A program made the position numbers and the translations under genes. From Candidatus Berkelbacteria bacterium (lineage in GTDB: Bacteria > Patescibacteriota > UBA1384 > XYA2-FULL-43-10 > CAINNR01): a stretch of DNA of 64,000 nucleotides. The notes under the pieces were generated by a model, which did not search any database, was not told the DNA's origin, and was given only the letters and a program-made list of their open reading frames with translations. The first letter of the stretch is position 1, and each line of letters begins with the position of its first letter. This document shows, piece by piece, positions 9,448-57,694 of this stretch. Location of the stretch: the NCBI GenBank assembly GCA_037142675.1, contig JBAXAF010000001.1, forward strand, positions 28,543 through 92,542, written 5' to 3'.

Positions 9448-9453
9448 ATGTTT

Positions 9454-9522
9454 TGTCATTCCGGACTTGATCCGGAATCTCTATCAAAAGTAATTAGATC
9501 CTGAATCAAGTTCAGGATGACA
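9454..9522 (+). repeat. Family-1 double-hairpin REP-like element, copy A (TGTCAT-[TTCCGGA..TCCGGAA]-spacer-[CCTGAA..TTCAGG]-ATGACA)
   Basis: Terminal 6-bp inverted repeat TGTCAT/ATGACA plus two internal hairpins; intercistronic between the ABC permease and ATPase. Confidence 0.6.
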
Positions 9523-12927: not shown

Positions 12928-13043
12928 CATTATCATCATCGGTGATCTAAGATTCCTGTTTGCACAGCAATGACAGAATAAAAAACGCCCTGCCGGTGGT
13001 AAGACCGGCAGGGGTTGTGTTCGTGATTGAGCCGTTGCCAGTG

Positions 13044-13742
13044 CTACACAGCAGCGACTTCGTCGGCAGGGCCCTCGAGCAACGCATGGATCCTGTCGGC
13101 GTCGGTGGCATCCATGCCAGCCGACCGACGCAAGGCAACTAGCTCATTGAGCCGATGCTTCAATCGCTTGAATGCCTGGTTGGCGGTGACGATCCGGTCG
13201 TCGGCGCCCGAGCGAAGCGCTGACTCGATTTCAGCCAGCGTTTCCTTGACGATCTGGTTGCCCCGGATTTCATCCATGGTGAGTCCTGCTTCAACGGCCT
13301 CGTCGACGATCTTCTTGATCCGCTCGGAGAAGATCGGTCGGGAGTTGGCGATCAGGCTGTCGGCAGCTTGGCCAACGGTCGGTCGCTGGACCCGCTGACA
13401 CTTCTCGTGTTTCAGATCAGCATCAATTGCTGTCCAGGGCGTCTCGCTCTGGTGAGGGCCATCAGTTGGCTTCACCGTCAGAGCGACTTGGTCGGACGGC
13501 AACCAATTGCCATGAGGGTCGCCCATCAACTTCTTGCGCGTGTCGGGGCCAATGAAGACCTTTGCTCCCTGGTTGGCCCCTTCGCCGCTGAGACACTCGA
13601 CAATAGTGGCGCGGCCGAAGCGCTCGTGGAGCGCCTCGATTTCGACCACCACTGCTAGTACGTCTGACTTTCGGTAATGCTGGCGGCGCTTGCCCTGTTC
13701 CATGATTACACTTTCTGTGCAAATATGATCTGGCTTCGTCAA
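13044..13742 (-). CDS. Hypothetical protein from a high-GC ORF (likely true start at internal Met, about 13703)
   Basis: ORF with high GC; intrinsic terminator downstream (12988-13020, CCCTGCCGG..CCGGCAGGG plus T-run); no recognisable domain. Confidence 0.45.
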   Translation of the reverse strand: MTKPDHICTESVIMEQGKRRQHYRKSDVLAVVVEIEALHERFGRATIVECLSGEGANQGAKVFIGPDTRKKLMGDPHGNWLPSDQVALTVKPTDGPHQSETPWTAIDADLKHEKCQRVQRPTVGQAADSLIANSRPIFSERIKKIVDEAVEAGLTMDEIRGNQIVKETLAEIESALRSGADDRIVTANQAFKRLKHRLNELVALRRSAGMDATDADRIHALLEGPADEVAAV

Positions 13743-13868
13743 GTCGAAGCTCTCAATTCACGCGCTTTGTGCGGCGGATGGTCAGAATTGTAGCATAAAA
13801 TTATATATTTGTCAATAAAAAAAGCCTGCCACGGACGGCAGGCAGTGCTTGGTTGTTGGTGGGGCCGG

Positions 13869-27339: not shown

Positions 27340-27470
27340 GAAATTATAATATCAAAATTCTAAATTCTAAACAAACCCAAATGATCAAATTCTTGAATAT
27401 TAAAGAAGATAAAACATTTTAATTTTGATATTGTTTAGGAATTAGATATTAGAGTTTAGAAATTTGTATT
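27340..27470 (+). repeat. AT-rich, roughly 130-bp element with terminal inverted repeats (AATTCTAAATTCTAAAC ... GTTTAGAAATT), copy X, upstream of pilB
   Basis: Shares TTCTAAACAAAYCCAAATGAYCAAA core and inverted ends with copy Y at 36386-36525. Confidence 0.45.
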
Positions 27471-36385: not shown

Positions 36386-36525
36386 TAAAATCAATTTCTA
36401 ATATCTAATTCCTAATTTCTAAACAAATCCAAATGACCAAAATCCAAATTTTTAAAACTTTAAGATATTTGAATTTTGAAATTGTCTGGAGTTTAGAGGT
36501 TGGAATTTAGAATTTAATTTTGCGG
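36386..36525 (+). repeat. AT-rich, roughly 140-bp element, copy Y, downstream of the last pilin
   Basis: Related to copy X (27340-27470): CTAATATCTAATTCCTAA at its left end is the reverse complement of TTAGGAATTAGATATTAG at the right end of X, and the two copies share a core. Confidence 0.45.
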
Positions 36526-37945: not shown

Positions 37946-37985
37946 TTTGTCATTGCGAGGAGATGTGCGACGTGGCAATCTCATT

Positions 37986-38054
37986 TGTCATTCCGGACTT
38001 GATCCGGAATCTATCTAATAGTTTTTTGGATCCTGAATCAAGTTCAGGATGACA
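37986..38054 (+). repeat. Family-1 double-hairpin element, copy B (nearly identical to copy A), preceded by an extra partial left end (37948-37956 TGTCATTGC)
   Basis: TGTCATTCCGGACTTGATCCGGAAT...CCTGAATCAAGTTCAGGATGACA; ends 10 nt before the DUF167 ATG. Confidence 0.6.
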
Positions 38055-43152: not shown

Positions 43153-43188
43153 ATCTATCAGTAGATTCCCGTTTCAGCGGGAATGACA
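43153..43188 (+). repeat. Family-1 element, right half only (ATCTATCAGTAGATTCCCG-TTTCAG-CGGGAATGACA)
   Basis: Matches the right hairpin and terminus of copies C/D with a compensatory stem; abuts the rplU RBS AGGAG. Confidence 0.5.
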
Positions 43189-43200
43189 GGAGCTCATATA

Positions 43201-44815: not shown

Positions 44816-44881
44816 GTCATCCCGCACTTGATGCGGGATCCACAAATAGTTTAGTAGATTCCCGCCTTCGCGGGAATGACA
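44816..44881 (+). repeat. Family-1 double-hairpin element, copy C (GTCAT-[CCCGCA..TGCGGG]-spacer-[ATTCCCGC..GCGGGAAT]-GACA)
   Basis: Same architecture and spacer (ATCCACAAATAGTTTAGTAG) as copy D; both stems differ from copies A/B but remain paired. Confidence 0.6.
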
Positions 44882-44890
44882 TTGAATACA

Positions 44891-46942: not shown

Positions 46943-47020
46943 GCGCTCTGTATGCTTTCAGCTTCATTATTAATCGCTTCATCCTCGAACTAAAGTTTGA
47001 GGTTTTCGCTATCTTGTTAT

Positions 47021-47052
47021 AAAAAACACCGCCCATTACGTCGGACGGTGTG
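47021..47052 (-). terminator. Intrinsic terminator after the GC-rich gene 47080..47508, followed by TTTTTTATAACAAGAT
   Basis: CACCG..CGGTG hairpin plus T-run on the minus strand. Confidence 0.5.
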
Positions 47053-47079
47053 ACAACTCGGAAAGTTGTCGGGTTCGCG

Positions 47080-47508
47080 CTAGAAGCCGTTGGTGTGATC
47101 ACCGCTCTGATGACCAGCCGGCGGGTCGGTGAGGCGAAGGTCATTCGGATCGGGTTGCGGCGGGATGCCATGTTGAGGAGGTGGGGCATTCTTGTTCAAG
47201 GCCTCAATCATAGCGCGGTCGTCGATTACAACTGTGATGATCGGTCCAGAACTGTCATGAACTGGTGCCAGTGCCGCTTGCGCAGGTGATGGCGACCGCT
47301 TGACAGCCTGGTACTGCTCCTCGTCGACCATTACCATCCAGCGATACCACCGACCAAGGTGGTCAAGTTTCCAGACAATGTCGGAGCCGGTGACCTTTCC
47401 GACCTGGTTGGAGCGGCAGAGCCGATAGTTGTCCATGCCGGCCGAAATGCCAAACAGGACAACCGCTACCCACAGAACCAACCCGATAAACGTCAGGTTA
47501 TCTTTCAT
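47080..47508 (-). CDS. Hypothetical membrane-anchored protein from a high-GC ORF
   Basis: Start MKDNLTF with RBS GAGGCGAGAG; N-terminal TM FIGLVLWVAVVLFGI; Pro-rich C-terminus. Confidence 0.45.
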   Translation of the reverse strand: MKDNLTFIGLVLWVAVVLFGISAGMDNYRLCRSNQVGKVTGSDIVWKLDHLGRWYRWMVMVDEEQYQAVKRSPSPAQAALAPVHDSSGPIITVVIDDRAMIEALNKNAPPPQHGIPPQPDPNDLRLTDPPAGHQSGDHTNGF

Positions 47509-47622
47509 CTCTCGCCTCACTACGTGTGATTTTCAGCGTATGTATAAACTATAGCACATTATCATAAAAAAGTCAACTAAAAAATGCCTTCGATACTTTA
47601 TCTCAGGCATTTTTCGATCAAT

Positions 47623-47838
47623 TTAGAACTTGTCTATGTATGGATTTGGGGCATCTTCTTTACCAGTGAGCTTTTTCATTGCCTTGGCGACCCTGGCCTC
47701 TTCTGGAGTCCGATAAGTTACAGGCTCAGACGGCAATAATTCTCTCTTTAGTGGTTCAGCTTTTGACATTGATGGTGGTAGTGGAGCTGGATCATTGTAC
47801 TCAAACCCTATTTGTCCTCCGGCTTCAGGATTTCCCAT
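47623..47838 (-). CDS. Small hypothetical protein (71 aa)
   Basis: Strong RBS GAGGAGG 4-5 nt before ATG; intrinsic terminator (47577-47615) directly after the stop. Confidence 0.45.
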   Translation of the reverse strand: MGNPEAGGQIGFEYNDPAPLPPSMSKAEPLKRELLPSEPVTYRTPEEARVAKAMKKLTGKEDAPNPYIDKF

Positions 47839-47893
47839 AGTGCCTCCTCAAAAATATATATTTAAGTTACTATTATAGTATAGCAAAAAAATT

Positions 47894-47964
47894 TGTCATC
47901 CTCGGACGGCGTAGCCAGATCCGGGGATCCACTAATAGTAGATTCCCGCCTTTGCGGGAATGAC
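47894..47964 (+). repeat. Family-1 double-hairpin element, copy D (left hairpin with enlarged loop)
   Basis: TGTCATCCTCGGA-CGGCGTAGCCAGA-TCCGGGGATCCACTAATAGTAGATTCCCGC-CTTT-GCGGGAATGAC; abuts the dprA RBS GGGGGAAAG. Confidence 0.6.
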
Positions 47965-47974
47965 GGGGGAAAGT

Positions 47975-52580: not shown

Positions 52581-53921
52581 ATGAAATTGTATAACACTTT
52601 GTCAAAATCTGTTGAGGAATTTAAGCCGCAGGACGAAAAAAACGTTAAGCTCTACACTTGCGGCCCAACAGTTTATAACTATGCTCACATTGGTAATTTG
52701 CGGACGTATATTTTTGAAGACGTTTTGCGTCGATCGCTGGAATTCTTAGGATATGCCGTTGATCACGTAATGAACATGACTGATGTTGACGATAAAACCA
52801 TTAAAGCTTCTGGTGGCAAGCAGGTAGAATTTAAGGAACTAACGCAAAAGTTTGAAGAAGCATTCTTGTCGGATCTGAAAAAATTAAACATTGAAAAGCC
52901 GACGGAAATTACCAGGGCAACGGAATATATTGAGCAAATTGTTGATTTCGTTTCTGATCTAATAGATCGGGGTTTTGCATACAAGGGTGAAGATGGCTCA
53001 ATTTATTTTTCAATCGAAAAATTTGCTGGCTACGGAAAATTATCTGGTCTGGACAAGGATGGAATAAAATCCGGCGCCAGAGTTTCTCAGGACGAATATA
53101 CTAAAGAGAATCCTGCAGATTTTGCACTTTGGAAGGCTTGGGACGAAGTTGATGGCGAGATCTTTTGGGATACTAAGCTGGGCAAGGGCCGACCTGGTTG
53201 GCATATTGAGTGTTCGGCTATGAGTCAGGACAAATTGGGTAACACGCTAGATATTCATGCCGGCGCAGTTGACCTAATTTTTCCTCATCATGAGAATGAA
53301 ATTGCTCAGTCCGAAGCCCGAACCGGCAAAAAATTTGTAAATTATTGGGTTCATGCGGAACATCTTTTGGTTGATGGCAAAAAAATGTCCAAGAGTTTAG
53401 ATAATTTTTACAAGCTTTCCGGCATTGAGGCCAAAGGTTTTTCACCGCTGGATTTTCGCTATATGTGTTTGTCGGCCAGTTATCGCGATAAACTCAACTT
53501 CACTTGGGAATCGCTGGAAGCCGCAGCCAATGCGTTAAAACGAGCAAGAAAAATTATAACTAGCATCGATGATGGCAGAAAAGTTAACGAAGAATACATG
53601 TCAAAATTCAAATCAGCGGTTGAAAATGATCTGAATACTCCGGAGGCGCTGGCAGTTTTTTGGAACCTTTTGCGTGATGAGAAAGTGTCAGCAGGTGATA
53701 AAAAAGCTACCGCGTTGGAAATGGATAAAATTTTCTCTTTGGATCTAAATAAAATTTCCAATGATGAAATTCCTGCCAATGTTTTGAAATTAGTTAATGA
53801 AAGGATTGCAGCTCGCAAAGAGAAAGATTTTGAGTTATCTGATAAAATTCGTGGTCAAATTGAAGAACTCGGGTTTTCGGTCGAAGACGCTGGTGACCAG
53901 TCAAAAGTTGTGAAGAAGTAG
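52581..53921 (+). CDS. cysS: Cysteinyl-tRNA synthetase
   Basis: HIGH (AHIGNLRTY), KMSKSLDN, zinc-binding Cys (C..C..H..E). Confidence 0.9.
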   Translation: MKLYNTLSKSVEEFKPQDEKNVKLYTCGPTVYNYAHIGNLRTYIFEDVLRRSLEFLGYAVDHVMNMTDVDDKTIKASGGKQVEFKELTQKFEEAFLSDLKKLNIEKPTEITRATEYIEQIVDFVSDLIDRGFAYKGEDGSIYFSIEKFAGYGKLSGLDKDGIKSGARVSQDEYTKENPADFALWKAWDEVDGEIFWDTKLGKGRPGWHIECSAMSQDKLGNTLDIHAGAVDLIFPHHENEIAQSEARTGKKFVNYWVHAEHLLVDGKKMSKSLDNFYKLSGIEAKGFSPLDFRYMCLSASYRDKLNFTWESLEAAANALKRARKIITSIDDGRKVNEEYMSKFKSAVENDLNTPEALAVFWNLLRDEKVSAGDKKATALEMDKIFSLDLNKISNDEIPANVLKLVNERIAARKEKDFELSDKIRGQIEELGFSVEDAGDQSKVVKK

Positions 53922-53975
53922 CACTATAAAAAGAAAAGCGCCACAGTGGCGCATGCCATGTGGCGGGAAGTGTGT

Positions 53976-53996
53976 AAGGCCCAGTGGGCCTTTTTT
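53976..53996 (+). terminator. Intrinsic terminator after cysS
   Basis: GGCCCA-GT-GGGCC followed by T6. Confidence 0.5.
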
Positions 53997-55108
53997 GATT
54001 GTGGGGCTGCCCAGTTTGTCGCCGGTTTAGCTGGTGACAACTCTGATCCGAAGATCACAGTACTGGGTTTTGCTGGTTTGGAACCAGCTGGTTTCGGATC
54101 CTTCCGATGCTTGTTGCCAGCATTTCTGCCGGCAAATCGGGAAGAGGAATTTCCCATAGTAACTGTCCCAAGCGTCCGAGCCAACCGATCACCGAAGTGA
54201 TCAAGAATACTTCTGCGGCTTTTATGAACGAGTACAAAGACCGTCCAAGCGCGCATCGGAAATGTCCGATTGAAGCATCTTTTGGTGGCCCAGGCGTCAG
54301 GGACAGACTTGTAATAAGTGTCCCGACGGGGCCACCAGGTGAACTTTGAACGGGGACTTGTTCGCAGTTCATTTGGGGCTCAGCATGGTCAGTGCTAATG
54401 TCCTTTTATTGGCGACAATCGCCAGACCATGGCCATTAAAGTCGGCGCTAGCTGGGATTTAAGCGCTTTCCTTTTGACAGCTGCACTTTAGCATATACTA
54501 TATAGATCTGTCAATAGGCACGGTGAAATAAAAAAGCACCCGAGGGAACGTTGAGTTGTCCCAAGGGTGCCGCTGGTCTGCGACTTGGCGTGCCTAGGCT
54601 ACGCCAACCGCGTTCTGCGCTCGGTTCCCCGAGTGCGGAATCGGTACTTCATGAAGTGAAATTCCTCCACCCCGTATTGGGGTCCATGGAATGATTCGGC
54701 TGCTTGTTGCTGGCCGGATTATCAGCATCTAATCGCGTTGATTGATGCCAATATTTCCGGCCGGGCCGGGCCCGCGCTGGTCTAGCTGCCGCCGGTGCTG
54801 ATCGCCGCCGCGCCCACGTCGTCCTGGACGAGCTGGGGAATCATACCGATGCTGGTGGCCTTGTTCTCGCCGCTGCTGCAGTTATTCACTATCGGAGTCA
54901 TGCCCAAACATAACCTGCGTCTGTGCCTCATGGCACTCACCTTGTCCACTCCCATTGCCGGGAGGTAATGAAGCTCCGCTGCTTTCCGCGCTGTCAACTT
55001 CCCAGTCTTGCCCACGGATTGCAACTTTGCTTTTGCTATGTTGGCGGAGCCCACCAATTTTTGTGGGTCACTGTGTGTCTACCCTCGATCCTCCACCAAA
55101 CTGAAAAC

Positions 55109-55138
55109 ATATTATCATATACTAAAAGTTTTGTCAAT
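55109..55138 (-). promoter_or_regulatory. Minus-strand promoter TTGACA-N18-TAATAT directing transcription into the GC-rich block 54535-55100
   Basis: Reverse complement reads TTGACAAAACTTTTAGTATATGATAATAT; matching minus-strand intrinsic terminator at about 54535-54575. Confidence 0.4.
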
Positions 55139-55206
55139 AGTTTTTCTAAAAAACTAATAGCTGTCAGCTGCTAGCTTTTAGAAAGAAAATCAGTTATAAT
55201 TCTGGC

Positions 55207-56199
55207 ATGAAAAATTGTTGGCAGAAATTAAAAAGACCAATTCTAATGTTGTCGCCGATGGCGGGGTACACCGACTCGGCTTTTCGGATTGTTTGCAAAA
55301 ACCAAGGTGCGAATTTGTTGATGACCGAATTAATTTCTGCCGACGCTATTGCTCATTGGGCGAAGAAAGCTAATGGCTATCAGCTGTCAGCTAGCAGCTT
55401 TTCGAAAAGCCCGACATACAAGCTAATGGAATTTCAAAAAGCCGAAATGCCAATTATTGTTCAGCTATTTGGCAAGCACCCGGAGAAGTTCGCTATTGCC
55501 GCTAAGTGGATTGAAGAAAATTTGAAACCGGCGGGAATTGACATTAATATGGGATGTCCGGCAAAAAAAGTTGTAAAATCCGATCACGGAGCTACGCTAC
55601 TGCGCGACCAAGAACGAGGTGTTGCGGTTGTCGAAGCGGTGCGAGCAGCAACAAAATTGCCGCTGTCAGTCAAAACTAGGCTGGGCTGGGAGAGCGATAA
55701 TGAAATTCTAGAATTTGCCCCAAAACTAATTGCGGCTGGAGTTGACGCATTAATTATCCATGGCAGAACATATAAAGATGGGTTCGCTGGAGATGCGCGA
55801 TGGGAAAATATATATAAGGTAAAAGCTAATAGTTGTCAGCTGTCAGCTGTTAAGGTAATTGGCAATGGAGACATTCGAAATCAAACGAATATAAAAGAAA
55901 GGTTAGGGAATTTAGACGGTGTGGCGATTGGTCGCGGCGCGGTTGGTAATCCTTTTATATTTAACAGTGACTTTGCCAAACTGTCCGAAAGCCAAGTGCT
56001 GGAACTAAAAAAGAAAACAATTTTAGAGCATGCAAAGTTAGCTTTTGAAATTAAAGGCGAGAAGGGGATTGTTGAACTAAGGAAACATTTGCTGGCCTAT
56101 TTCAAAGGACACCCAAGGGCAAAAGAACTACGAAAATCGTTTGTAACAGTTAAAAATGTTTCAGAAATTAAAATTGCGCTAACTGCTATTGACAAATAG
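55207..56199 (+). CDS. tRNA-dihydrouridine synthase (Dus/NifR3 family)
   Basis: SPMAGYTDSAFR, FMN-binding TIM-barrel motifs (INMGCPAKKV, catalytic Cys); carries two in-frame copies of a short repeat (see findings). Confidence 0.85.
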   Translation: MKNCWQKLKRPILMLSPMAGYTDSAFRIVCKNQGANLLMTELISADAIAHWAKKANGYQLSASSFSKSPTYKLMEFQKAEMPIIVQLFGKHPEKFAIAAKWIEENLKPAGIDINMGCPAKKVVKSDHGATLLRDQERGVAVVEAVRAATKLPLSVKTRLGWESDNEILEFAPKLIAAGVDALIIHGRTYKDGFAGDARWENIYKVKANSCQLSAVKVIGNGDIRNQTNIKERLGNLDGVAIGRGAVGNPFIFNSDFAKLSESQVLELKKKTILEHAKLAFEIKGEKGIVELRKHLLAYFKGHPRAKELRKSFVTVKNVSEIKIALTAIDK

Positions 56200-56246
56200 C
56201 TAACAAAGTGCTAGACTTGATTTGTTCAAGGAAAGGGGATTAAAAA

Positions 56247-56270
56247 AGAGGAGCGGGAACCTCCTTTTTT
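56247..56270 (+). terminator. Intrinsic terminator after dus
   Basis: AGGAG-CGGGAAC-CTCCT followed by T6. Confidence 0.5.
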
Positions 56271-56602
56271 GTATCACTGGAGCGTTTAATTCGAGAAGTA
56301 GAAGTTTGATTCGAAAAATGTTCAAAACATTTTTCTGGGGAGAATTATCAAATTTCACTACTCGATATACTGACTTGTAGGCAGAAGTATAGCTGGGATT
56401 TAGGGACCTATGGGCAGAAGGATTTTTAAACTAGCGGCATTTCGACCCCATAAACTATGTGGGTCAGCCGCGAAGTTGCCTTCTGCTTCTCTCCTTTTTC
56501 CTGGCTAGACTTCTGCCTTCTTTTTTTCCGGCTTGCCGGTTCAAGATAGAGGAACAGACCTGCGCCGCAACGCGGGCAGGACCACATTGGAGGTGACGCA
56601 TC

Positions 56603-57694
56603 ATGCGTCGCACAGGTTTGGCAGTTGTAGTCGCTCTGGTGCTGGCCCTCACCGCTACGGCGGTATTGGGCGGGGGATTCGTCCTCGACAGCATCGTGGC
56701 TCAAGTGTATTCCGAGAAAGTGACGATGGTGGATGCAGGAGTATCCACTTACGCCAACTACTCGGATACGATGAGCGGCACGATCAACGGAGTCGCGCCC
56801 AACGCCGGCAATGTCACGGCGCTTTGGGACAAGTTTGGCGTAACGAACGAGACACGGTGGCTGCGAATTGTCACTGTTGTCAAGGACGTTAAGAGCCAAC
56901 AGATCATCGACATCAAGCAGGCCTTTGTCACTCCGGAGAACAAGCAGACCAACGACGGCATCGTATGCAAGGTCGTTAGTCCGTACGAGATCTGGATCGA
57001 CACACAGAGCCTGCCCGAATTCACGAGGTTTTCGCCCGTTGTGGTTCAGAACGCCTCGACCAAGGAGCACCGCATCATCTGGATCTTCCGCTCGGTTAGC
57101 CATATCGAGCGCGAGAACTCGGCCGACGTGTTCATCACTCGGCTCGATATCTCAGATGAGTTGTCGGAGGATCTGGTCGGAGGACAGCCGCAACTGGGTC
57201 TGACGCAGACACTGCTCGAGAGCAAGGACCGCCCCAAGGCAGTCTCGCGCCTACTTCGGGCGTACGTTTACTCGAGGTACCCGATTCAGCTGACCAGGAC
57301 ATCGGCGCCGTATCAAATCGTGGCCGATGGTCGGGCCCAGGCTGTTCAGGGCATGGCCCAGGACCAGACGCGCGATGCTATCGCCAGGCTGACTGCTGCC
57401 TATGAGAAACAGGCCGCGGAAAGCAAGGCGACTATCGACAACTTGGTCCAGAAGCTGAACGCGTCAAAGCCTCAGAATTGGAGTATTGGGGTCGGCCCCT
57501 CTCCGACTGGCGCTTGGTACGTTTGGCTCGATGGCGGGCCCAAAATGCGCGTTGCCGCTGACACTGTCAGTTTCAACACGCTGCTGGGCACTCACTGGGT
57601 CGAAGTTGTACCTGAAGGTGACGCGTTCAAGAGTTGGCACCGCTGCGTTGTGACGCAAGCGGGCCAGCAGCTCGACTACGCGGAGGTGAAGTAG
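56603..57694 (+). CDS. Secreted hypothetical protein from a high-GC ORF
   Basis: RBS GGAGGTGACGC, signal peptide MRRTGLAVVVALVLALTATAVLG; about 60% GC by eye. Confidence 0.5.
   Translation: MRRTGLAVVVALVLALTATAVLGGGFVLDSIVAQVYSEKVTMVDAGVSTYANYSDTMSGTINGVAPNAGNVTALWDKFGVTNETRWLRIVTVVKDVKSQQIIDIKQAFVTPENKQTNDGIVCKVVSPYEIWIDTQSLPEFTRFSPVVVQNASTKEHRIIWIFRSVSHIERENSADVFITRLDISDELSEDLVGGQPQLGLTQTLLESKDRPKAVSRLLRAYVYSRYPIQLTRTSAPYQIVADGRAQAVQGMAQDQTRDAIARLTAAYEKQAAESKATIDNLVQKLNASKPQNWSIGVGPSPTGAWYVWLDGGPKMRVAADTVSFNTLLGTHWVEVVPEGDAFKSWHRCVVTQAGQQLDYAEVK

Follow-up and report, generated by a model that had tools for sequence, protein, structure and literature searches.

Degenerate heptanucleotide arrays in the coding sequence and promoter region of a Berkelbacteria dus gene

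The dus locus and its arrays

The 64,000-nucleotide stretch of DNA analysed here (the window) belongs to a metagenome-assembled genome (MAG) of Candidatus Berkelbacteria, a member of the candidate phyla radiation (CPR), and carries a gene for a tRNA-dihydrouridine synthase (dus), in and just upstream of which three copies of a short repeat are found. The dus open reading frame (ORF) is intact and encodes a protein of 330 amino acids that matches the Pfam Dus profile (E = 3e-69), conserves the invariant residues of the family and is 100% identical to an NCBI entry under the Candidatus Berkelbacteria name. Two assemblies were compared, and the locus is identical in contig CAZGMR010000011.1 of assembly GCA_964526775.1. 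The gene order is topA, recR, cysS, a GC-rich spacer and dus, and relatives share this order. The features on which the analysis turns are as follows.

55109 to 55137, minus strand: conserved divergent sigma-70 promoter (TTGACA, 17-nt spacer, TAATAT), which bounds an insertion-prone spacer
55153 to 55180, plus strand: promoter copy of the array (ACTAATA GCTGTCA GCTGCTA GCTTTTA), between the divergent minus-strand promoter and the dus -10 box
55195 to 55200, plus strand: probable dus -10 box TATAAT, read from the sequence and from an alignment with the orthologous locus L001
55207 to 56199, plus strand: dus (tRNA-dihydrouridine synthase), recognized by its ORF, Pfam match and invariant residues
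55369 to 55403, plus strand: first coding copy (site 1; GCTAATG GCTATCA GCTGTCA GCTAGCA GCTTTTC, giving ANGYQLSASSF), residues 55-65, between beta2 and beta3
55825 to 55852, plus strand: second coding copy (site 3; GCTAATA GTTGTCA GCTGTCA GCTGTTA, giving ANSCQLSAV), residues 207-215, between alpha6 and beta7

Anatomy and reading frame of the arrays

An earlier note on this DNA had described a single motif of about 25 bp, present three times at dus. The three copies are real: searched with up to three mismatches, GCTAATRGYTRTCAGCTGTCAGCT matched the window only at 55153-55176, 55369-55392 and 55825-55848, all on the plus strand, against an expectation of zero matches from 100 dinucleotide-preserving shuffles, and the positions first given for the copies were right to within 1-3 nt (they begin at 55153, 55369 and 55825). 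A repeat search of the window placed all three in one family (D11), and neither the 13-mer core nor the 17-mer head had a convincing match elsewhere in the 64 kb. The supposed single motif is instead a degenerate array of four to five tandem heptanucleotide units (GCTAATR, GYTRTCA, GCTGYYA, GCTTTTM), the unit in the dus frame being GCTGTCA and its transition variants GCTATCA, GTTGTCA, GCTGTTA and GCTAATA. Tandem Repeats Finder (TRF) reported period 7 at 55376-55399 (3.4 copies) and 55834-55850 (2.4 copies), with at most two perfect units per dus copy, and the lag-7 autocorrelation of the two coding copies is 0.50-0.63. Period 7 was also the sole non-trivial period above about 5 nt that was clearly enriched in the window (three arrays vs 0.1 in shuffles).

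Each unit consists at its core of the palindrome CAGCTG and a single spacer base, so that the array can be written (CAGCTG+N)n; the reverse complements of the units read CAGCTGA, TAGCTGA or CAACTGA, and reverse-complementing the array gives it back with A for T in the spacer. This explains the near-palindrome that had been recognized in the motif, as well as the near-matches on the minus strand. As RNA, the isolated dus copies are unremarkable, with hairpin z-scores of -1.78, -2.51 and -0.43. The array is open in only one of the six frames, in which it reads ANSCQLSA, and both coding copies use that frame; the head GCTAATAG closes the two remaining forward frames with TAA and TAG, and the reverse strand has TGA in all three. 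Both coding copies begin on codon boundaries (GCT is Ala55 at 55369 and Ala207 at 55825), they translate as KANGYQLSASSF (55366-55401) and KANSCQLSAVKV (55822-55857), and they agree with each other at 21 of 24 nucleotide positions.

The coding copies in the Dus protein

The nearest orthologues of the window protein, P0002 and P0005, are 79-82% identical to it, are its sisters in a neighbour-joining tree built with the loops masked, and are exactly 7 aa (21 nt) shorter at site 1; dozens of Dus proteins at 70-80% identity appeared in the protein search. The solved Dus structures 1VHN (T. maritima Dus) and 6EI9 (E. coli DusB) are 13-15 aa shorter at site 1 and 4-6 aa shorter at the second coding site. 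Between the same anchors, generic Dus loops have median lengths of 22 and 11 aa vs 36 and 14 aa in the window Dus, a baseline that was drawn from a search of 50%-identity representatives, among which CPR relatives were too few to extend the pairing test given below. The comparison with orthologues that the earlier note had called for thus finds the coding segments to be lineage-specific and in frame, with the residues missing from P0002, P0005 and the solved structures.

The description of both coding copies as short in-frame insertions holds for site 1, where the window protein has exactly seven additional residues, and fails for the second copy, which is mostly a replacement of another heptamer array. 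At that site the loops of close relatives are of similar length and are built from another unit, AAGTCAA AACTCAA repeated in P0002 and AAGTCTA AAGTCGA repeated in P0024; the latter has the array architecture of the window at site 1 and yet an AAGTCKA array, like that of P0002, at the second site. Since these arrays differ from that of the window, the second coding copy appears to have largely replaced an older array. The dus gene of P0024 also has an extra in-frame, GC-rich insertion of 24 nt, GACTTCGACGAGCTCAGTCGAGTC (L141, about 650-673), in the loop before the GIDINMGCP strand, and the other aligned orthologues are without it.

In an AlphaFold2 model of the window Dus (mean predicted local distance difference test score, pLDDT, of 91), site 1 takes in the end of helix 45-56, a loop and a short helix 62-66 (pLDDT 72-77), and the second coding copy takes in the end of helix 200-209 and the loop preceding strand 216-220. 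As modelled, beta3 and beta7 are each preceded by one of the coding segments, which form helix-to-strand loops on the side of the triosephosphate isomerase (TIM) barrel that faces away from the active site; the topology puts them four beta-alpha units apart, in corresponding places of the two half-barrels. That the two loops touch each other in the folded Dus is unlikely, as the model topology would place them on opposite sides of the barrel.

The promoter copy

The remaining copy had been assigned to the 5' untranslated region of dus. A perfect TATAAT lies only 6 nt before the ATG, for which reason this copy is better called a promoter insertion, and the dus mRNA is probably leaderless or nearly so. 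The promoter scan did not score this -10 box, no -35 being present. Alignment with L001, which is the locus of P0002 and the closest orthologous locus, shows the promoter copy as a 23-nt insertion; the native -35 of L001 (TTTCAA) appears to be displaced by the array in the window, and the promoter copy may alter dus transcription. The divergent promoter block is also present in L001, L141, L142 and L145, and the promoter spacer holds other, differing insertions in the last three of these loci. Compared by eye, 24 of 25 positions of the promoter copy agree with the site 1 array of P0024 once one GCTGTCA unit is left out of the latter.

Paired arrays at the two loops of orthologous genes

The same two sites carry heptamer arrays in other lineages. 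The variable loop cores of eight CPR dus loci are 7-nt periodic (mean lag-7 identity of 0.54 vs 0.28 for the rest of the genes), and their units are lineage-specific: (AGTTGTC)x4 in L002, (GCGAAAA)n in L142, (GAAATCC)n in L145, AAATTTA/AAATTCA in L143, A-rich units in L144 and (AAGTCNA)n in P0002/P0024. The loop peptides of 87 orthologues resemble translated heptamers (KSKIQNP, SEIRNPK, SVVSCQLS).

In several genes, the arrays at the two loops are alike. Both loops of L143, 480 nt apart, contain one and the same 32-nt array, which occurs nowhere else in 18.6 kb, and L144 has an identical 33-nt array (33/33) at both loops, 465 nt apart; similar arrays stand at both loops in L142, L145 and the window. 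A word of at least 6 aa common to both loops was found in four of 81 dereplicated orthologues vs 0.35% of cross-gene pairs, a count of four being reached in only one of 2000 permutations, and with looser loop-loop matches in the window protein, P0007 and P0013 counted in, the pairing occurs in at least five independent lineages. The loops are identical at codon level beyond what selection on the peptide would give (P about 10^-3.5 and 10^-2.9), which rules out protein-level convergence as the cause of the pairing. The site 1 peptide of P0006 (LKIKDKRLKI) reappears at the second site of P0008. Plain vertical inheritance of the array common to the window and P0024 is unsupported, the two not being sisters in the loop-masked tree, and either recombination or independent gain may account for it. 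Judged from the sequences, these loci appear to record the concerted evolution of very short tracts at two or three sites that lie close together, by a mechanism to which we return below.

Two further observations concern these loops. In the very close Dus proteins P0014-P0032, whole cassettes are swapped at the first loop (VNKNKDLE; the 23-aa VAKKQDARNKLQTNHKSQIIKFK; VGKNSKSEYRN...), and the reappearance of these cassettes in other clades suggests recombination between lineages. Small hairpin repeats of two families, TTTGTCATTCCGGA...TCCGGAATC and GTAGATTCCCGC..GCGGGAATGAC, lie at or near ORF ends in the window, at 9452-9522 and 37984-38054 and at 43155-43190, 44848-44883 and 47932-47967; translation-like peptides of such repeats (PAGRQG, DSHFHGND) stand in frame in the same Dus loops of a few orthologues, where they look like translated GC-rich hairpin elements. 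A metagenome search for Dus was used solely as background in an array scan, all the matches listed being distant (at most 43% identity).

The repeat family outside dus

Copies in other ORFs and elsewhere in the genome, for which the earlier note had proposed a search, exist in both forms: an array lies inside priA of another Berkelbacteria genome and others lie in the rplJ-rplL spacer of this genome, so that the motif has further genomic copies just as the Dus residues are not conserved among orthologues. The sequence of this genome was extended by about 18 kb outside the window, giving about 82 kb in all, in which five arrays of the GCTRTCA family were found, three at dus and two in the rplJ-rplL spacer (L147 19730-19797, about 6 kb past the 3' end of the window). 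The latter form an inverted pair that is predicted to fold as a 7-nt-periodic hairpin of -28.8 kcal/mol (z = -4.45, 0 of 200 shuffles) and that ends 14 nt ahead of the rplL ATG.

Counting all unit types, heptamer arrays are common, with 13 period-7 arrays in the same 82 kb, of which five are in frame in housekeeping genes. The tgt gene has two (L147 21171-21217 and 21522-21554), a GAATTCA-type array encoding LELRIKNHNSEFSIHNS and a CAAGTGA-type array encoding TQVTSDKLQVTSK, and its product is exactly 7 and 14 aa longer than the solved TGT structures at these two places. A CAAGTKA-type array encoding KLVTSHKLQVKS, which shares its unit family with the second tgt array, lies in frame in murD (L146 22705-22734, minus strand, about 9.8 kb before the window start; L146 is identical to the window where the two overlap). 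Two intergenic sets are found within the window:

27351 to 27464, plus strand: period-7 arrays with units AAATTCT / TTAGAAA, intergenic, from 14 nt past the upstream ORF's stop
36393 to 36422, plus strand: period-7 array with unit AATTTCT, intergenic, from 8 nt past the upstream ORF's stop

In species-representative genomes, a 21-nt degenerate pattern of the family was found at 58 loci, where about nine were estimated by chance, and all of these loci are flanked by further GCTRTYA units. The hosts are Bacteroidota, Acidobacteriota, Nitrospirota, Rubrobacter, Desulfobacterota and one Berkelbacteria genome, the whole of which (L105) has a single match; viral contigs gave no match for the motif. 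The upstream gene's stop codon is the starting point of 25 among 59 arrays in other genomes, and 14 lie directly against the stop of a gene in convergent orientation. PriA of Berkelbacteria RIFOXYA2_FULL_43_10 has the ANSCQLSA-coding array in frame (IIIKLSANSCQLSASLKN). In the Bacteroidales MAGs L084, L099, L126 and L137, the array encodes KLSANS[CY]QLSAVR in paralogous proteins of about 700 aa (four paralogues), at a location that looks like the C-terminal sorting domain (YPNPA...) of the type IX secretion system (T9SS).

Comparison with described repeats

Tandem direct repeats of the heptamer TAACTGA were described by MacGregor (2015; Front Microbiol, PMC4679880) as 169 sets of two to six copies, whose forward orientation has stops in all three frames so that only the reverse can code. 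They often overlap stop codons or sit just upstream of start codons, the latter with a proposed post-transcriptional regulator, and a few copies lie inside ORFs, where they are peripheral; their distribution is patchy over unrelated phyla including Bacteroidetes (MacGregor, 2015). The variants TAGCTGA and CAACTGA, which translate as SAISYQL and SVVSCQL, are rare as repeats in the BOGUAY genome (MacGregor, 2015, Table 3). Heptanucleotide repeats are the commonest class of long simple sequence repeats (SSRs) in prokaryotes, with polymerase slippage as a suggested origin, according to the summary of Mrazek et al. (2007) that is given in MacGregor (2015).

The dus arrays share much with the TAACTGA repeats. 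They too are 7-nt tandem direct repeats of at least two units, their units TAGCTGA and CAACTGA are one base and CAGCTGA two bases removed from TAACTGA, and SVVSCQL is exactly the peptide of orthologue P0046. Both have one orientation capable of coding and stops in every frame of the other, both are scattered over unrelated phyla including Bacteroidetes with a few copies inside ORFs, and many arrays in other genomes, the rplJ-rplL copy and the other period-7 arrays of the window lie, like TAACTGA, at gene boundaries. They differ in the palindromic CAGCTG+N unit, which makes the array nearly its own reverse complement, in the CPR host (Berkelbacteria), a group outside that study, and in number, with many sets per genome (169) there vs five arrays of this unit in about 82 kb here. 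The dus copies also occupy internal loops of a conserved enzyme and not protein termini, and the duplication of an array between two sites of one gene is absent from that description. On this comparison of sequences the dus units belong to the same class of heptamers and are arguably a sister unit family. The short tandemly repeated repetitive (STRR) sequences of cyanobacteria are dispersed, intergenic tandem heptamers with no known function, longer, abundant and mainly non-coding; they resemble the dus arrays in being tandem heptamers, and differ in unit sequence, length of the arrays and abundance. A literature search for the exact array sequences returned no paper, and no CPR-specific paper on such repeats.

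Origin of the arrays

Our data suggest that the dus motif is probably a short, degenerate heptanucleotide array of a class already known in bacteria, rather than a discrete transposable element, and that it has been copied locally between sites. Such arrays would grow and shrink in 7-nt steps by slipped-strand mispairing, and to survive inside a gene an array has to be read in its sole stop-free frame (ANSCQLSA), to change the length of the gene by a multiple of three units (21 nt, 7 aa) and to lie where the protein tolerates extra residues. In Dus the tolerant sites are the loops before beta3 and beta7, with the spacer between the divergent promoters as the third. The three copies would be related by copying, arrays being pasted between nearby sites, probably through template switching at short homologies or through gene conversion, for which the arrays themselves and A-rich microhomology would be the seed, and the pasted copies would subsequently diverge by point mutation and by gain or loss of units. 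The arrays are most likely passengers that have no catalytic role in Dus.

Several observations weigh against this explanation. The head GCTAATR is common to all three copies and the tail GCTTTT followed by GAAA to two of them, a pattern closer to that of a defined element than to a simple microsatellite. There are two perfect units per copy, so that any ongoing slippage is expected to be slow, and the loop lengths of orthologues are not strict multiples of 7 aa apart (26, 27, 30, 32, 33, 36 and others). At about 25-33 nt, the homologous tracts are close to the shortest that RecA-dependent exchange can use, the site flanks have only A-rich microhomology in common, and a mechanism of copying between sites is read from the pattern of the arrays. 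Finally, about 32 nt are common to the Bacteroidales T9SS protein gene and the Berkelbacteria priA (L105), and independent slippage does not obviously explain near-identical arrays in unrelated phyla and genes.

A bolder version, which we regard as doubtful, is that the heptamer arrays of CPR bacteria are self-propagating, coding-compatible mini-insertions that are copied into the helix-to-strand loops of the essential enzymes Dus, Tgt, MurD and PriA by a specific mechanism, including repeated exchange between the two pseudo-symmetric Dus loops. If this were true, a large share of the lineage-specific loop insertions of CPR proteins would come from repeat DNA and not from ordinary indels.

The alternative that fares best against local copying, although it is unlikely, is a selfish element comparable to the Rickettsia palindromic elements (RPEs) or to transposable elements of the miniature inverted-repeat kind (MITEs), that is, a small palindromic mobile family that would have made three independent in-frame insertions at dus. 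RPEs are about 100-150 bp long, form long hairpins and occur in tens to hundreds of dispersed copies, not as short tandem units; they were reportedly treated by Ogata and colleagues in 2000 and in later work. The likeness to RPEs that the earlier note had drawn stands as far as behaviour is concerned, since the dus copies are in frame in a housekeeping ORF and put a peptide on the surface away from the active site while the host protein remains intact, and the same in-frame behaviour is seen in priA and, with another unit family, in tgt and murD. It does not extend to size or copy number, as the dus copies are 28-35 nt long, periodic in 7-nt units, few and mostly copied locally. As to hairpins, the scores of the dus copies are weak and that of the rplJ-rplL pair is strong, and the self-complementarity comes from the CAGCTG unit and not from inverted repeats of a whole element. 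A mobile family would account for the ANSCQLSA-coding array in both Berkelbacteria priA and the Bacteroidales T9SS sorting domains, for the CAAGTKA family in frame in both tgt and murD of this genome, for the strong hairpin of the rplJ-rplL copy and the palindromic unit itself, and for an array common to the window and P0024, which are not sisters in the tree. Set against it, no further copies lie in the 64-kb window and a Berkelbacteria species-representative genome has a single match, the 18-20 kb that flank L143 and L144 lack their paired arrays, the second coding copy took the place of an older array instead of being a clean insertion, and no transposase or mobility gene was seen in the context examined.

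A MITE was rejected, no terminal inverted repeats and no credible target-site duplication being seen. The one apparent duplication, the 8-nt TAAGGTAA that occurs twice at the second coding copy, coincides with conserved KV...KV codons, and to read it as a duplication would make the ancestral loop shorter than in any Dus examined. The template repeat and variable repeat (TR/VR) pair of a diversity-generating retroelement was also rejected, the copies being 24-33 nt vs about 100 bp and their differences transitions that are not adenine-specific; no reverse transcriptase was found among the called neighbours of the dus loci.

It is quite unlikely that the copies are selected cis-regulatory sites on DNA or mRNA, through which a protein or small RNA would control dus, with pairs kept identical to fit the same partner. 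Their concentration on one gene and its promoter would suit such a role, as would the within-gene pairing, seen in at least five lineages with a different sequence in each, the position of the rplJ-rplL copy 14 nt before the rplL start, like the TAACTGA repeats upstream of starts (MacGregor, 2015), and the CAGCTG palindrome, which is of a kind suited to a dimeric binding protein. P0002 and P0005, however, have an intact dus with no array at site 1 or in the promoter, most orthologues have unrelated sequences at the two loops, and the arrays are wholly different between lineages, so that each lineage would require a partner that co-evolved with it; a search of both strands of the window gave no complementary copy, and the region had no Rfam match. 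Mimicry of the tRNA D-loop (TCAGTTG) by the mRNA, by which Dus might regulate itself, was rejected, as orthologues with A-rich arrays show no likeness to it.

A contingency locus, in which the heptamer tracts would be phase-variation switches that frameshift dus or shift its promoter spacing as units are gained or lost, is highly improbable. In its favour, the dus tracts are short tandem repeats in promoter and coding sequence whose length could change by slippage, 7 nt is not a multiple of 3, so that slippage by a single unit would switch the gene off, one copy lies within the promoter spacer, the L002 orthologue has four perfect units and heptanucleotide phase variation is documented in other bacteria, as in papers on Haemophilus. 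Against it, the arrays are short and degenerate with at most two perfect units per copy, dus is a housekeeping tRNA-modification gene and not a surface or restriction-modification gene, and every orthologue examined is fixed in frame, with the two assemblies of this genome identical at the locus.

The explanation by local copying of heptamer arrays would bear on how CPR proteins are read. Proteins of the CPR (Patescibacteria) are known to annotators for odd low-complexity loop insertions, and the arrays trace such insertions to a process at DNA level, in which 7-nt arrays survive in one frame and in increments of 21 nt. Paired arrays that are lineage-specific and identical in DNA represent very short-tract copying inside bacterial coding sequence and offer a tractable example of concerted evolution; in the literature searched, we found no description of identical arrays pasted recurrently between the Dus loops and the promoter, and that heptamer arrays seem to lie so often in frame in housekeeping genes of the CPR also appears to be undescribed. 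The results also extend a TAACTGA-like heptamer family to the CPR and several other phyla and identify a palindromic unit, CAGCTG+N. In practice, heptamer arrays can pass for mobile elements, break alignments and inflate apparent divergence, and the peptide signatures ANSCQLSA, SVVSCQL, SEIRNPK and KSKIQNP should be useful for annotation.

Other features around dus

Rfam searches of the whole window gave nothing at gathering thresholds, and across 53700-56650 only tRNAs were returned at E <= 1. Just 3' of dus, at 56335-56530, lies a conserved element of about 145-190 nt that is 77-93% identical in L001, L141 and L142, is preceded by a plus-strand promoter at 56189-56217 and is predicted to fold as a long irregular hairpin of 49 pairs, of which 10 show compensatory changes among five sequences. 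It had no match in Rfam and may be a 6S-like or other small RNA.

Between cysS and dus, at 53900-55100, the GC-rich spacer forms an island of about 1.1 kb (about 54% GC vs about 40% in the genome) that holds nothing but short overlapping ORFs on both strands and sits downstream of the strong conserved minus-strand promoter running from 55137 to 55109. The island, a candidate large non-coding RNA, has no Rfam match even with the threshold relaxed to E <= 1, and it aligns with L001 over 809 nt at 73% identity and with L145 over 264 nt at 74%. Further ORF-poor, GC-rich islands lie at about 13000-13800 and 47000-47900.

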